DNA of 64,000 bases from assembly GCA_038204425.1 (NCBI GenBank), contig JBBRCZ010000006.1, forward strand, positions 1 to 64,000, written 5' to 3'. The position numbers are program-made. The stretch's first letter is position 1. Each line of letters begins with the position of its first letter. This DNA is from Spirochaetia bacterium (GTDB taxonomy: Bacteria > Spirochaetota > Spirochaetia > DSM-27196 > Salinispiraceae). Positions 27,001-36,000 of this stretch are shown here, one piece after another.

Positions 27001-30000
27001 CAGCAGAAAACTCAATCTTGACTTGGGCGCGGATCTGATCTAAGACCATCAAGGTTTGGCGTGAGTACTGGTTAAAACTCTGCGCCTCTTGCGGTACTGC
27101 GCACAGTTGGATAAACTTGTTTAGTTCGTAGTACATATCTTCTTCTAGGTTCTGAACTTGGTAATTCTCTGGATCTTTTCCACGCAAAGCAACGTGCACC
27201 GTGCGGGGACAGCCCAGATGGTCAAAAAGAATAGTGCCTTGCTCGCCAATAATCTCATTCCATGCCACCGAGTCGCCAATTTTTGAGTAGACCAAGCTGG
27301 CTTGCATGGTGGGGTAGCTGGCAATTACACTTCCAGCGCCATCGATGCCATTGGACAGTTTGATATCTGAGGCGAGTATCGACTGAGGTGGCCCAAAGAA
27401 TCGCATCAACATGTGCACTACGTAGACGCCAATATCCATCAGTGCTCCATTGGACAAGTTTGGATCAAAGGCGTTTTCAATTTTGCCTTGCTTAAAATCA
27501 TCATAGCGCGATGAGTATTGGCAATAGTGCAGTTTTACTTGGCGTACTGGCTCAATGCTGGCAATTTTTGAAGCTATGAGCTCGGTTGACGGCATAAACA
27601 TAGGTCTCATGGCCTCAAGTAAGACGCGCTTGTTGGTGTGTGCCGCATCAAACATGCGCTGCAGTTCTTTGCTGTTGGATGCCAAAGGTTTTTCGCACAA
27701 AACGTGCTTGAGGGCTTCCAGCATGCTGATGCTATGAAATGCGTGGTAGGCCGTAGGGCTGGCCACATAGACTGCGTCGACCAACTCGCAATCAGCTATT
27801 TGCTGCAAGGTGTCAAAGGCAAGGCAGCCGGTGTAAGACGCAGCAAAGGTGTCGGCCTTAAGTTTTGACCTTGAATAGACGGCGGCAAGGCTTGCATTGG
27901 GCATAGTGCGTATGCAGCTAGCAAAACGCCGGGCGATGGCACTAGTTCCAATTATTGCAAACCTCATGCGTCCTCAAAACGGCAACAACAGACCAGATGG
28001 TCTTCAATCATTGCCGCGCCTATGATGCCGGCGTCATTGCCAAGGCTGGCTATTCTTACTTTTGGCGCGCCAATGGCGGAGTAAGCAAAGACATAGTCTT
28101 CTAACTTTTGGTTAATAGGATTTAGAAGGGCATCACCTTGCTGGCAGACGCCCCCCCCGATTAGGACCACCTTGGGTCTAAAAATGGTGACTAAATTGGC
28201 AATGCCGGCTGCAACGTAAGACAAATAGCGGTCAATTACTGCCATGGCAGTTGGATCGCCAGCATTAGAAGCGAGAAAGGCAATATTTCCATCGACCTTA
28301 CTCAAGTTACCGCCAGAAAGAGAATGCAGCAAAGAGTCGGGGTTGGCCTTCATGGCCGCTTGGGTTTGTTTAACCAGAGCGCTTCCTGAGGCATAAGCTT
28401 CTAAGCAGCCGCGCTTACCGCAGCTGCAAGGCTCGCCCTCAAAAACTAAAGTGGTGTGGCCAACTTCGGCACCCATCTGGTCGCAGCCGTTAAATATTTG
28501 CCCATTAAGAATTATGCCGCCCCCCACACCGGTGCCGAGGGTAACCATAACCACATTCTCAAATGATTTAGCCGCTCCAGCTAAGGACTCACCAAGGGCT
28601 GCGCAGTCAGCATCGTTGGCAAATGATAGGTGTCTGCCAAAACGCGCGGTTAGTTGATCTTTTACCGGGGCATTTTCCCAACACATGCTATTGGCAAAGA
28701 CTAAGAGTCCGGTTTTGGGGTTTATACAGCTTGGTGTGCCTATGCCCAAAGAGCGCATGTCCGCCAAACTTAGAGAAGCCTTTTCTAGTGCCTGTTGGGC
28801 GACTTTGACTATATCAGACAGAACCAAGTCAAATGCCCGACCTGCACCGGTAGCAAGGCTCGCACGGGACACCAGCTGGTAGTTTTCGTCAACGACTCCC
28901 GCCGCAATTTTTGTTCCACCTAAGTCAATGCCAAGGTAATGTTTCATCGCAATTCGTCTCCAGAGCTCAGAAGGTTAATAATGCATAGCATAGCATCGTT
29001 TTATCTATAGCACAATCAAAAACGATCGAAAAAGATCACAATTGAACTGGAAAGTGAATATATGCGATCAAAATGAGGCGAAACACTGATTCAAGTTGAT
29101 TAAAAATGATAACGGATGTATAATAATGATAAAGGAGATTGAAATGAAAACTACAGACCCTAAAAAAAGACAATTGTTGGAATCGTTTAAGAATGGTTTG
29201 ATTGTGTCGTGCCAGGTTCAGAAGGACGATCCTATTTATAGTGAGGAGCTGGTAGTCAAAATGGCTATAGCCGCCCAATGGGCAGGAGCTGTGGGCATCC
29301 GAGCCAATACCCCTGACCAAATTCGTTTGATCAAAGCTAAGGTAAACTTGCCAGTAATCGGGCTCTACAAAATCTGGCATGACGATACTGACGTCTTTAT
29401 TACCCCCACGATCGAAGCAGCTAAACTAGTTTGGGATGCTGGAGCAGAAATAATTGCGCTGGATTGTACCAATCAAACTACTCATCAAAAAACCAAAGCC
29501 TGGGAGCTTTTGCCGATACTTAAAAAAGAAATCCCTGAAGCAATAATCTTTGCCGACGTAGCCAACTACGAAGAAGCAAAACACGCTGCAGAACTTGGCG
29601 CCGATATCGTTGGTCCAACACTTTATGGCTACACTGCCGAAACCAAAGACATTGAGCTGCCAGACATGCGAGAGTTTGCACGGATGTGTCGCGACCTTGG
29701 TAATGAGTGTTATATGATGATGGAAGGTCACGTTTACACCCCCGAAGACGCCATGAAGTGTTTGTTCTTAGGAGCGCATTCAGTAGTGGTTGGTAGTGCC
29801 ATTACACGTCCTCACCTTACTGCCAAGAGATTTGTGGATTTGCTGTCGGGCTACCAAGATAACTGGAGAGCCGCCGAACGCAAGAAGCACTAAGGTATCC
29901 GTTCGCCGCCGAGATCATTTAATTAAAGGGGAGCAGGCAAGATGGCAAAGTTCAATGTTGACGGGGTCCAGAACGTAGAAGTGAGCAAGAAGTTTCCATG

Positions 30001-33000: not shown

Positions 33001-36000
33001 ATGATTTCAGCAATAAGCCGTGCTGAGTGCCAAATCCTAGAACGACTTGCTGCCTCAAGGGGGCTAACCGTCAATGGAGCCTAGCGCGGCAAAAGCTCAT
33101 AGCCTTGGACAACATAAAGACGGTGGAATAGGCGATAGGACTCGGCATATTTGATGTGATCCTTGCCGCATTGCATGGCTCTAAATTGATGTTGAATAGG
33201 AACTTGCGACAAAATAGGCGTATGGTCACATTGGGTTTTATGTTCTTTGAGCATCGTCATTTTTAGGTCAAACTGAGCGCTAATATCAATATAAAACTGT
33301 GGTTCAAAGGCTATGCCGCCAAGGTTGTCGGCGTAGAATACTGGCACCCAGGATACATCAGTAATTAGTCGGCTAATTACGCGATGGTCGGGATGATAGT
33401 CGCCTGGGTCGTGGGTAAAGATCACGTCAGGTTGTAGTTGAGCATACAATTGGCGACATGCTTTGTAGGTCTCTTGGTCGTAGATTATCTGTCCGTCTTC
33501 AAAGTTTAAAAAAATTGGCTCAATACCAAGGTGGGCCAATGAAGCACGAGCTTCGGCCTGACGGATTTTGGTCAAACCTGGGCCTTCAGGTTTGCCGGCC
33601 TGTCCATTGCTTGCAATCACGCAACTTAGCTCGTGCCCTTGCTGTTTGTACTTAATCAAAGTGCCCATGAAGGTTGCTTCTAGATCATCAGGGTGGGCAC
33701 CAACGGCCATCACTTTCATAAACTCTCCTCGCTAGATTAGTTGCCAATAATATAAGTCAGAATAGCCTTAACTGGACTAAATGTCATCAAATCATTGACT
33801 TATAGCTCGTCTAAAACTATTCGCTGTGGCCCAAAACTTCGAGATATTCATTGAGTTTGAGTGGTCTGTAGTAGAGAAAACCTTGAAACAACGATATTTT
33901 ATGGTCTATCAAAAACTTGGCTTGCTCACGACGTTCAACACCTTCTGCAACGACACTTAAGCCAAAGGCAAAGGCAATGTCTGCCACGGCGCTAACCAAG
34001 GCCTCGGAAGCTTTGCTGCCAGGGATTCCTGCCAAAAAAGCCTTGTCCAGTTTAAGCATGTCGACCGGCAAGCGGTGTAGGTAGCCAAGCGAAGAGTAGC
34101 CCGAACCAAAGTCGTCGATAGCAATCGACATGCCCGCGTTTCTAAATCTTTCAAGTGCGGCGCTCCCACGGCCACCAGCTTCCATCAATATCGACTCGGT
34201 TACTTCTAGTCTGATTTTTTTTGGATTGATCTTGTAGTAATCCAAACGTTCCATAAGTTCGTCAGAAAAGCCGGCGTATAGCAACTGACTTGGCGAAAGG
34301 TTGAGCGCCACCGGTGGAAAGTCTGGCCGAGACAGGTAGGGGGCCAAATCACTAAAGACCATGTCGATAATGAGCTTGCCAAGATCTCGCATTAGGCCGG
34401 CTGATTCGGCAAGAGGTACAAAAATAGACGGGCTTGAGACATAGCTTTTTTGCAAAGACTGCCAGCGCACCAAGGCTTCGCACGAGGCTATTGTTCCATT
34501 TGCATTGACTATTGGCTGATAGACCATAGAAAAGCGCTTCTCCGCTAGGTCATGGCGCAGATTTGCAATTGTTAGAATTTTCTCTAGGCTGGCTTGGTGG
34601 GACATTGGTGAGTAGACGGTAATCTGTCCTGGGTGCTTTTTGGCATCACGCAAAACACTCCAACAGGCCGAGAGGACACTGGAGCGATCTTTAACAGAGT
34701 CGGGTAGCCAGTTGACTCCGATCGAGCAGCTCAGGGCTTGTGTTCCCTCGTCGACCTTAATTCCGGCCTTAGCAAGTTCGTAAATCGCTTGTCCAAGCGC
34801 AACAAGTTGGGCTCCAGAACTAGCTTGTCTGGTCAAGATTGCAAACTCACTGCCACCAAGTCTAAATACACTTGATTCCAGCGGTATAACTTGGCGAATA
34901 GTGGTGACAAATGACTTAATTACAGCGTCGCCATATTCAACAGAAAAGCTTTCGTTGAGATCCATTAGTTCGTCCAAATAGATCAATATCAGGCCTGTTT
35001 TGGCGTGGGGCGAGCCCATTTCATCATCAATAGCCTGCAAAAAGGCGCGGCGGTTGGAGATGCCCGTCAAGTCGTCAGTCAAATTTAGCTGTGCGAGCAG
35101 GCGCTCACTGCGTTTGAGTGCGTCGCGAGCTTGTGAGACCTCACGTGCTTGCAACAAAAAAATGCGGAAAAAACCGAGTGCGATCAAGACACAGAAGCCA
35201 GTTAGCCCAAAGGTCATACGAGAAAAACGAACAAAGAACAATGGATCTATGACAAAGCCGAGGCTGCTTTCGGCCACAGCTGACAAGCCAAAAAACATAC
35301 CAAACGTTATGGCCGACAGTACCAGTCTGTTTCTTTTGAATGTTCCCCAGCGAACGTGGTCAATCAACAATGCCACCAAGCTGGTGATCATAAACAAAAC
35401 CTGAATCAGGTCGGTTATGTAGTAAAGTGGGCCTTTTTGAGCTAGCTGCGGATTAAAGTTTCCGGTATCAAAGAGACTTGAAGCGACAATAAAATTGTTG
35501 GGTGATGCAGCGACCATAATATAGGCAATAATCATCAAGAGTGTGCCTAGATAGCACATCAGTAAGAAGACCCTCCTCGCATGGGCAGGCTTAAGAATAT
35601 TTGCATAAAGAAAAAGTGGCATGGCTAGCCAGAACAAAAAGTGCACCGATTGTTGCACTAAATAGACGGCACCCAGTAGTTCTTGACCGGCGTCGCTGCC
35701 CAACAGTAGAAACAGGGTGATCTCTAACGCACTATAAGCAAAGGTGATCAACAAAATCATTACAAATGAGAGGTAGTTGTTTTCTTTAAAATAGCTTCGG
35801 ACCAGCAATAGATAAATAACCGTAGTAGCTATTAGTCCGCAGGATACCCCTGCTAAGATAAGATCGGGCAAGAACATATGCTAAGTATACAGTAAGCCGA
35901 CTTGTTGATGTTGGTTTTTTTTTAACTTGTAGCTAGTTGCCATTCTATAAACTTATGGGCATGCTCTTGGCATGAAATCCAGAGAATTGAGCTCCTCACT

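Follow-up and report, generated by a model that had tools for sequence, protein, structure and literature searches.

Glycyl radical enzymes (GREs) have narrow active sites, and new clades have tended to come with new reactions, according to the available text of a 2026 review (PMC13450708). That text presents a CxE motif as a feature of GRE eliminases and isomerases, names CutC as cleaving a C-N bond and describes YbiW and PflD as epimer-specific enzymes that abstract at C2; among the GREs it covers, none cleaves an ether (C-OMe). Both in the gut and in the ocean, methylated sugars are reported to be resistant, and the sugar demethylase described requires oxygen (PMC6292453). In Zobellia, the formaldehyde from sugar demethylation is cleared by HPS and PHI (PMC9400963).

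Here, we analyse a locus of a Salinispiraceae genome (95.6% complete) within a window of 64,000 nucleotides (positions 1 to 64,000 of contig JBBRCZ010000006.1). It represents a gene set that is widespread in gut bacteria and joins an uncharacterised, oxygen-sensitive radical enzyme to its own sugar epimerase. A search of the open literature, outside which most subscription papers lie, returned no description of this GRE clade. The neighbouring genes hint, short of proof, at anaerobic removal of a methyl ether from a sugar, which would be a reaction new to the GRE family.

The locus and its genes

The core unit consists of a NanE paralogue (29144..29893, forward strand; 249 aa, its ATG preceded by an AAGGAG site), the GRE (29942..32221, forward; 759 aa, with Cys405-x-Glu407 and Gly736) and a radical SAM GRE activase (32266..33084, forward; CxxxCxxC at residues 37-44, TIGR02494 272 bits against a cut-off of 174), the last being of the short type that lacks both auxiliary 4Fe-4S motifs. 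Divergent from this unit are a ROK-family sugar kinase (27964..28947, reverse strand; PF00480, E 1e-70) and, behind it, a Gfo/Idh/MocA oxidoreductase (26990..27967, reverse; PF01408) and a DeoR-family regulator (26214..26969, reverse), the latter with orthologues at 49-57% in other module loci and a tblastn match in 13 of 72 loci. The open reading frames thus lie as the initial annotation had described them, with the GRE and activase following a NanE-like gene and ROK beside them. The kinase, which scores below every NCBIfam kinase cut-off, would make the sugar 6-phosphate, and the Gfo oxidoreductase (orthologues above 38% identity in 6/72 loci, from Clostridia and Bacteroidia, by tblastn) is a candidate reductase of the keto-sugar product. 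A sigma-70-like site in the divergent intergenic region (28948..29143), at 29096-29124 on the forward strand with 10/12 matches, is not above shuffle expectation for that region, and promoter and terminator counts equal those of shuffled sequence.

A PIG-L/LmbE de-N-acetylase (33081..33719, reverse; PF02585) converges on the activase, with a 4-base overlap with its stop, and has diacetylchitobiose deacetylase as its nearest solved structure (E 1e-15); a gene for a GH112 phosphorylase is located 4 kb upstream of the DeoR gene. Both were considered as module members and rejected, there being no match to either in any other fetched locus, as was GH35, with one weak match in a sister-clade locus.

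The GRE is predicted to be an intact member of its superfamily, having the glycyl loop RVSGFS with Gly736 (PF01228, E 4.5e-26), a catalytic Cys405 placed in a PFL-like barrel (model pLDDT 95.6; TM 0.83-0.86 to solved GREs) and a cognate activase. Invariant polar motifs comprise R156, N265, RRTTVNGR (305-312), VEPQF, N419, E524 and N617-N618. All clade members shown have CxE (C-T/G-E), by which the enzyme would belong with the eliminases and isomerases; the longer PFGCTEF, earlier listed as conserved, gives way to PFGCGE[FY] in Listeria, Enterococcus and most Erysipelotrichales.

No characterised GRE fits the clade. The NCBIfam equivalog cut-offs for HypD, CutC, HpsG, HpfG, IAD, HPAD and PFL are all missed (91-277 bits against 994-1150), as are the YbiW/PflD models PRK09983 (252 against 1109) and TIGR01774 (337 against 678). 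Fold searches singled out no solved GRE, structural identity being 20-26%, which bears out the earlier statement that PDB matches reach the family level only. Clades A (the core), B and C group on a single supported branch and have active-site motifs in common; the tree, made with FastTree, carries long-branch warnings outside the GRE clade. The clade is common: Parabacteroides distasonis is among the carriers, and of the 7999 clusters at 90% identity that were scored, 1566 pass a threshold of E 1e-200.

The NanE paralogue keeps Q24, R53, K76, D138, E194 and R222, invariant in 38 aligned sequences and equivalent to S. aureus Gln11, Arg40, Lys63, Asp124, Glu180 and Arg208, and it passes the PRK01130 cut-off (236.6 against 189). 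Because it also keeps the equivalents of Tyr149 and Phe72 (Y163 and F85), which contact the acetamide in NanE, an N-acyl substrate would be compatible with its pocket. It departs from the signature X-P-X-I-G-I-X-K-Z (Z basic), reading LPVIGLYKI here, with Z non-basic in the clade consensus, and has K-I-W, [GA]PTL, EGH and a C-terminal extension as clade-specific features. Canonical NanE and the paralogue coexist in several genomes. No NanA, NagA or sialidase was found among recurring or scanned neighbours, and the Salinispiraceae genome yielded no NagA match and no NanA above cut-off.

Distribution of the module

The 72 loci reported earlier, at 58-70% GRE identity, were reproduced, and a tblastn recount over all of them gave a NanE-like gene (66.5-79% identity) in 63 (previously 61), directly upstream of the GRE in 55 of the 67 with enough DNA (previously 51), the activase in 64 (unchanged) and ROK in 44 (previously 43). 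The claim that the module is fixed to the kinase fails, ROK being absent from 28/72 loci, including all five that have a mannose-family PTS. This alternation of ROK and PTS as the phosphorylating step supports action of the GRE on a phosphorylated sugar. Minimal loci comprise AraC, NanE-like, GRE and activase genes, without reductase or aldolase. Elsewhere the neighbours include alpha-mannosidases of GH92, GH125 and GH38, mannose PTS, PMI and, in 16 loci by ORF clustering, a GH94-like protein, for which, as for the GRE, the ESM Atlas gives automatic names only.

The pairing of the GRE with the NanE-like gene exceeds chance. The two co-occur reciprocally (10/10) in a sample of 121 Tannerellaceae genomes, and a sample of 201 Erysipelotrichales genomes contains 27 with both, one with the NanE-like gene only, five with the GRE only and 168 with neither, the centre genome of each sample having been picked for its GRE and related genomes not being independent. 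The pairing extends to two sister clades, and the pairwise identities of the GREs are correlated with those of the NanE paralogues (57 loci, Spearman 0.49, the pairs not being independent). A sample of 400 Clostridia genomes (one unscored), in which the module occurs in the centre genome only, informs solely on canonical NanE coming without the GRE: 30 canonical NanE matches there have no clade GRE with them. Metagenome contigs searched with NanE-paralogue patterns, which are poorly conserved, gave one locus. At locus L144, contigs from three of four RNA runs cover the module at a low depth indistinguishable from DNA.

Genes near the sister clades

The clade-B GRE operon of genome G684 ends in a DUF1638 gene, and 5.9 kb behind the GRE lies MtaB, the only one among the 201 Erysipelotrichales genomes and a lone instance noticed post hoc. 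In G756 and G644 the clade-C GRE is co-oriented with two URO-D methyltransferases, a corrinoid protein and an activator. Stand-alone corrinoid proteins occur in 11 of 32 GRE carriers against 7 of 169 other Erysipelotrichales (Fisher p 5e-6), and in 5/26 for clade A alone (p 0.012). This enrichment is drawn from a single order, takes no account of kinship and may stem from genomes being rich in sugar operons generally. Across the wider superclade, methyl genes stand at 4/18 loci (one of methionine-synthase length) against 0/15 other GRE loci, a comparison with too few loci to carry weight, and circular in that its profiles were built from proteins of the same analysis. Within fetched flanks, methyltransferase or corrinoid genes occur at only one of the 72 core loci and at none of 23 further clade-A loci.

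Extra DERA paralogues lie beside the GRE or NanE paralogue in all five of the genomes selected because they have one, and each of these genomes encodes a deoC of higher score at another place; an RmlD-like reductase stands beside these extra paralogues. HPS and PHI share an operon with the clade-A GRE of G765, are absent from 71/72 core loci and, in L005, belong to a polyol operon. DERA, HPS and PHI often accompany a second, YbiW-like GRE of 796 aa, which may be their owner. The Salinispiraceae genome has no match for MtaB, URO-D, HPS, PHI or the RmlD-like reductase. HPS/PHI, considered as proof of formaldehyde, were set aside as weak, since four of five genomes tested carry one to three HPS copies. 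The methanol/corrinoid methyltransferase, DERA and HPS/PHI neighbours of the sister clades point to an O-methyl sugar.

Proposed reaction and alternatives

Our best reading is that the module catabolises a hexose with a blocked C2 oxygen; the genes, catalytic residues, fold, linkage and neighbour statistics are what the analysis shows, and from these we infer the substrate, attack position, leaving group and all downstream steps. We give a probability of about 0.42 to the GRE being a radical lyase that acts on a hexose 6-phosphate blocked at C2 and removes the group there, with methanol the likeliest to leave. A ROK kinase or PTS would supply the 6-phosphate, and the NanE paralogue would deprotonate C2 directly to interconvert the gluco and manno epimers, which is the one epimerisation route left when a blocked C2 forbids that of PGI/PMI through the ketose. 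As a 1,2-eliminase, the GRE would abstract the hydrogen of a neighbouring carbinol (C3, or C1) with the Cys405 thiyl and deprotonate its hydroxyl with Glu407, whereupon the C2 group would depart to leave a 2-deoxy-3-keto-hexose 6-phosphate (or 2-deoxy-lactone); reduction by a Gfo or RmlD-like enzyme and cleavage by a DERA-type aldolase could then yield acetaldehyde and erythrose 4-phosphate. The reading is favoured by the epimerase, whose six conserved NanE catalytic residues work on aldose 6-phosphates in open-chain form, by the CxE motif, the ROK/PTS alternation, the reciprocal co-occurrence and correlated identities of GRE and NanE paralogue, and the common branch of clades A to C, and also by the methyltransferase and corrinoid genes, the DERA and RmlD-like genes and the alpha-mannosidase, mannose PTS and PMI neighbours. 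That the substrate is exactly 2-O-methyl-D-mannose/glucose 6-phosphate, with methanol leaving, is a tentative assignment. It is likewise doubtful, if conceivable, that this radical methanol-lyase would be the first ether-cleaving GRE, giving oxygen-free, cobalamin-free use of O-methyl sugars, and one branch of an uncharacterised superclade (~100 clusters at 50% identity that have a GCGE loop) whose members may serve different methoxy sugars. Counted against the C2-lyase reading are the single core locus with methyl genes, the lone post hoc MtaB, the one-order enrichment, the weakness of HPS/PHI as markers, the second, YbiW-like GRE that may own DERA, HPS and PHI, the minimal loci without reductase or aldolase, the retained acetamide pocket and, in the Salinispiraceae genome, the lack of methyl genes and the deacetylase next door. 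If the methyl lead is right, it identifies an anaerobic route for O-methyl sugars, one microbial origin of methanol and a few substrates to try with four purified proteins; if it is false, the module continues to offer a clearly delimited place to look for a new radical reaction on a sugar phosphate.

An amino-sugar C-N lyase is an unlikely alternative, in which the paralogue would be an N-acylmannosamine 6-phosphate epimerase, ordinary or broadened in scope, and the GRE would act at C2 of a hexosamine 6-phosphate that NagA/NagB cannot handle, freeing ammonia or else an amine/amide. On its side are the catalytic and acetamide-pocket residues, the PRK01130 score, the adjacent deacetylase, the GH112 gene, the missing NagA, NagB-like genes in loci L022 and L129, GlmS in L063 and the precedent of CutC. 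However, PIG-L and GH112 have no match in the other fetched loci, NanA, NagA and sialidase are missing from the recurring or scanned neighbours, canonical NanE coexists with the paralogue and comes without the GRE in Clostridia, and the methyltransferase genes are left unexplained. The predicted radical reaction on an (amino)sugar 6-phosphate is supported as regards an uncharacterised GRE clade, a dedicated NanE paralogue and a phosphorylated sugar; its amino part is put in doubt by the lack of NanA/NagA-type genes among recurring or scanned neighbours, the coexisting canonical NanE and the sister-clade neighbours, which point to an O-methyl sugar.

Less likely again is attack elsewhere on a methylated sugar, either on 3-O-methyl-hexose 6-phosphate, with hydrogen abstracted at C2 or C4 and methanol lost from C3, or on the methyl itself, giving formaldehyde and a 2-deoxy sugar. 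The methyl-gene evidence is identical for the C2 lyase and these variants, 3-O-methyl hexoses are the commoner in nature, and a C2 epimerase would widen the scope of an enzyme that, like YbiW and PflD, abstracts at C2 epimer-specifically. Against this, a 3-O-methyl aldose can shed methanol non-radically, in the way that lactate is removed by MurQ, and PGI/PMI could connect the C2 epimers of such an aldose. Formaldehyde release, for which the G765 operon and the Zobellia precedent count, would need a detoxification partner everywhere, and HPS/PHI have no such distribution.

Improbable, too, is a YbiW/PflD-type isomerase that opens the ring of an anhydro-hexitol or ether-bridged sugar 6-phosphate supplied by an adjoining Gfo/3-keto-glycoside pathway. 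The CxE motif and the sugar-phosphate precedent suit it, many loci have Gfo, DUF1080 and xylose-isomerase-like genes at their sides, L041 has a GH31 gene behind its activase, and the NanE paralogue stands beside PflD-FSA units in L101, L149 and L151. Yet FSA (one query) matches only in those three loci, adjoining PflD-like genes, with none in the 72 core loci or the Salinispiraceae genome; the GRE is distant from YbiW/PflD, the His of the YbiW/PflD/GD site aligns with Gly159, and NanE chemistry requires a free C1 aldehyde and C5 hydroxyl that anhydro-alditols lack. Finally, C-C cleavage of a keto- or acid-sugar phosphate, of formate-lyase or decarboxylase type, to 2-deoxyribose 5-phosphate for DERA is very improbable: the DERA paralogues, the short 759-aa chain and the GRE being the only PFL-like gene of the Salinispiraceae genome would fit, but the site has a single Cys with CxE instead of the Cys-Cys of PFL, the PFL score is 91 against 994 with decarboxylase models likewise far below cut-off, and no CoA-handling or small-subunit neighbour was seen.

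Comparison with known systems

Relative to NanE of S. aureus, Fusobacterium and C. perfringens, the paralogue is alike in the six catalytic residues, the acetamide-contacting aromatics and the phosphate motif, but forms its own clade (62-84% identity within, 33-50% to canonical NanE), fails the first signature motif by having Lys then Ile where a basic residue is expected, has a C-terminal extension and sits outside nan operons. With YbiW and PflD, the 1,5-anhydroglucitol/mannitol 6-phosphate isomerases (8ID7, 8ID0, 8YJO), the clade GRE shares the fold, the CxE loop and a sugar 6-phosphate context with kinase or PTS; it differs in being 25-26% identical, on another tree branch, ~13 residues shorter ahead of strand 313-316, with Gly159 instead of the site His, and accompanied by a NanE paralogue, not FSA aldolase. 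Glycerol/propanediol dehydratases, HypD, CutC and HpsG/IslA are alike in fold (VIA Z 38-42, rmsd 2.1-2.7 A over ~710 residues), and GRE 1,2-eliminases have the CxE motif and a cognate activase in common with the clade, but all tie, at 214-277 bits against cut-offs of 1000-1100. The cytochrome P450 and HPS/PHI system of marine Bacteroidota, acting on 6-O-methyl-galactose, would, under the C2-lyase reading, solve the same problem of removing a methyl ether from a monosaccharide, and one-carbon handling genes are linked in both; the P450, in contrast, is unrelated and oxygen-dependent, releases formaldehyde and retains the sugar hydroxyl.

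Organisation of the locus and its clade

The locus in the window consists of two divergent units. By Pfam and NCBIfam models, the minus-strand unit (26214–28947) encodes a DeoR regulator, a Gfo/Idh/MocA oxidoreductase and a ROK kinase; the plus-strand unit (29144–33084) holds a NanE-like gene (29144–29893, 249 aa), a 759-aa glycyl radical enzyme (GRE; 29942–32221) and an activase (32266–33084). The GRE contains Cys405, Glu407 and Gly736 and is the sole PFL-like gene in its genome, and the GC content of the module (47.3%) is near that of the genome (46.2%). The activase is without two auxiliary 4Fe-4S motifs found at loci L001 and L144; those of L042 and L056 are likewise short. 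Outside the conserved module, at 19880–24849, a GH112 galactosyl-N-acetylhexosamine phosphorylase (over cut-off) is followed by a 933-aa GH35 protein.

Searching 1.84 billion representatives without a profile recovered the clade of this GRE, followed by two sister groups (at 53% and 47%) and, at 33–43%, a broad set with a GCGE loop. In a FastTree tree of 77 proteins, clades A (58–70%), B (51–54%) and C (46–47%) group together with 97% local support, and this branch falls inside a superclade (100% support) separate from YbiW and PflD. Clades B and C each have their own diverged NanE paralogues and have in common the motifs around R156, N265, R306–R312, E344–Q346, N419, E524 and N617–N618. The superclade itself is large and uncharacterised (GCGE loop, about 750 aa, 30–43% to the window GRE) and occurs in sugar loci (P0005–P0101; L095–L098, L136–L143, L185–L189), among them loci with a nucleoside hydrolase and PfkB (L137), GH78 (L138), a corrinoid module in a xylan locus (L142), and PTS, glycerate kinase and GH38 (L143).

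Linkage of the GRE and the NanE paralogue

The initial annotation described a GRE clade of 72 loci at 58–70% identity, fixed to a NanE-like epimerase and a ROK kinase. The 72 loci were reproduced, and a tblastn recount of all of them found the NanE-like gene in 63 (previously 61), the activase in 64 (64) and the ROK kinase in 44 (43), so that the kinase is not a fixed partner. The NanE-like gene lies directly upstream of the GRE in 55 of the 67 loci with enough DNA, where 51 had been counted. It is absent from nine loci, three of which end at a contig edge (L055, L068, L072). For two of the nine, a paralogue lies elsewhere in the genome (G010 for L068, G006 for L063); a third (L024, genome G002) has canonical NanE only, and a paralogue search in genomes G003, G004, G005, G007 and G009 gave nothing over the cut-off.

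Co-occurrence was counted in two samples, each centred on a carrier and with kin that are not independent. Among 121 Tannerellaceae genomes, the identical ten hold the paralogue (70–77%) and the GRE (66–70%). Among 201 Erysipelotrichales genomes, counted manually at thresholds of 55% and 47%, 27 have both, one the paralogue only, five the GRE only and 168 neither. Several of these six exceptions are explained, because the gene is at a contig end (G715), a broken copy is directly upstream (G698), a short contig begins with the GRE (G601) or a more distant NanE is directly upstream (G738). All 30 canonical NanE matches (33–45%) in 400 Clostridia occur without a clade GRE. A clade GRE is missing from all 60 relatives examined (best match 42%), so its distribution around the window's genome is patchy. 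We conclude that the module is real, well bounded and testable.

Individual loci vary. At L005:9230–13089 the GRE is flanked by two NanE paralogues (69% and 77%), and the locus has no activase; L061/L160, where the GRE is split into three and the NanE-like ORF is short, is one low-quality or decaying copy; and in G765 a C_GCAxxG_C_C family gene comes next after the activase (L164:6234–6653).

Gene neighbourhoods

Genes that recur near the module across the 72 loci encode AraC or DeoR regulators, Gfo oxidoreductases, a GH94-like protein, DUF1080 proteins, xylose-isomerase-like proteins, HAD phosphatases and PMI; GH1, GH3, GH5, GH38, GH92 and GH125 are scattered. Neither NanA nor NagA was found among the recurring or scanned neighbours (38 cluster representatives plus 92 of 164 further neighbours), and FSA had no match in the 72 loci. 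The GH94-like protein (733 aa; L034:10505–12703) is present in 16 of the 72, across Bacillota and Bacteroidota, and no solved structure comes close to it (best E 3e-4). In Tannerellaceae/Dysgonomonas (L002, L012, L031, L039, L041, L069, L144), the module adjoins a Gfo, DUF1080 and xylose-isomerase-like cluster, which corresponds to the oxidation–elimination glycoside pathway and may feed the GRE.

Beside the GRE itself, methyl-handling genes were found at 1/72 core loci, 0/23 additional clade A loci and 3/6 loci of clades B and C; none were found in the window's genome. In G684, the clade B operon has a DUF1638 gene at its end and faces genes for a corrinoid activator, a corrinoid protein, MtaB and a URO-D methyltransferase. 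This MtaB (E 4.5e-172), at a distance of 5.9 kb from the GRE, is the only one in the 201 Erysipelotrichales genomes. In G756 and G644, the clade C GRE is last in a run of HPS, PHI, two URO-D methyltransferases, CobW, DUF1638, a corrinoid protein, an activator, DERA and a YbiW-like 796-aa GRE. DERA, HPS, PHI and PMI continue the clade A operon of G765, and DERA with an RmlD-like reductase stands beside the paralogue or GRE in G651, G594, G688 and G640; where this was checked, the DERA is an additional copy. These Erysipelotrichales methyl-gene islands share ancestry, and HPS is a frequent gene in these taxa.

Stand-alone corrinoid proteins (frames up to 240 aa, counted manually) occur in 11 of 32 GRE-carrying Erysipelotrichales against 7 of 169 non-carriers (p 5e-6), comprising 6/6 of clades B and C and 5/26 of clade A. 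A narrower subtype, defined post hoc, gives 9/32 against 2/169, and its module is next to sugar PTS genes in three genomes. Modules of two URO-D proteins, a corrinoid protein, an activator, DUF1638 and CobW in non-acetogen-like Erysipelotrichales (L170–L184, three beside sugar PTS genes) are possible sugar O-demethylases.

A second uncharacterised GRE, the YbiW-like 796-aa protein (best PDB E 1e-156), accompanies DERA, HPS and PHI in five or more Erysipelotrichales genomes (L155:8221–11337, L100:10113–14468, L126, L166). It is also carried by G765, G632 and G006, and was not found in G684 (best match 38%). DERA, HPS and PHI may belong to this enzyme instead.

Proposed reaction and alternatives

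We propose, at a probability of roughly 0.42, that the GRE is a C2-lyase, in a model whose substrate and every step we infer. A C2-deprotonating epimerase is needed when a C2 group blocks isomerisation to the ketose. The C2 epimerase and the 2-deoxy-specific aldolase both point to C2 as the site of action. ROK and PTS replace one another between loci (ROK in 0/5 mannose-PTS loci), which, like the known substrate of NanE, implies a 6-phosphate. The sugar would be imported and phosphorylated, epimerised at C2, and would lose its C2 group by radical 1,2-elimination at Cys405/Glu407, through the ketyl mechanism that the available sections of PMC13450708 describe for eliminase GREs; the product would then be reduced and the 2-deoxy sugar cleaved by DERA.

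The methyl genes point to methanol as leaving group, which most carriers could simply excrete; a 2-O-methyl substrate is a tentative and somewhat doubtful extension. Against the methyl reading stand the scarcity of such genes beside clade A GREs, their absence from the window's genome, the shared ancestry of the Erysipelotrichales islands, the frequency of HPS in these taxa and the chance that DERA, HPS and PHI serve the 796-aa GRE. By our own reasoning, a 2-O-methyl group is not removable by ordinary beta-elimination, which would be a reason for radical chemistry. De Ruiter in 1994 reportedly described 2-O-methyl-D-mannose in Mucor exopolysaccharides, and O-methyl mannose is reported from algal, fungal and invertebrate glycans (PMC12507850, available sections).

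An amino-sugar substrate is unlikely. It would suit the PIG-L deacetylase gene (33081–33719) that adjoins the activase in the window and that may stand in for NagA, which was not found in the genome, but the gene recurs in no other fetched locus. Another O-methyl position, or formaldehyde as product, seems less probable again, and an anhydro-sugar isomerase slightly less so still.

Comparison with characterised enzymes

S. aureus NanE removes the C2 proton of an open-chain aldose 6-phosphate (PMC8482478, available sections). Its six residues of demonstrated importance are all retained in the NanE paralogue, as are both aromatic residues in contact with the acetamide, but the paralogue departs from the first NanE signature motif given there. 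The C-terminal extension of the paralogue is clade-specific and modelled with low confidence. Canonical NanE and the paralogue are found together in G006, G765, G756, G644 and G632.

The window enzyme belongs to the GRE superfamily and probably to its eliminase class, but to no characterised family. It misses every NCBIfam GRE cut-off by a wide margin; its AlphaFold model (pLDDT 95.6) resembles every solved GRE to about the same degree (20–26% identity); and none of the GREs in the available sections of a 2026 review fits it (PMC13450708). No description of the clade was found in searches of the open literature. In glycerol dehydratase, a His protonates the leaving group (PMC13450708, available sections); the YbiW/PflD counterpart of this His aligns with Gly159 of the window GRE.
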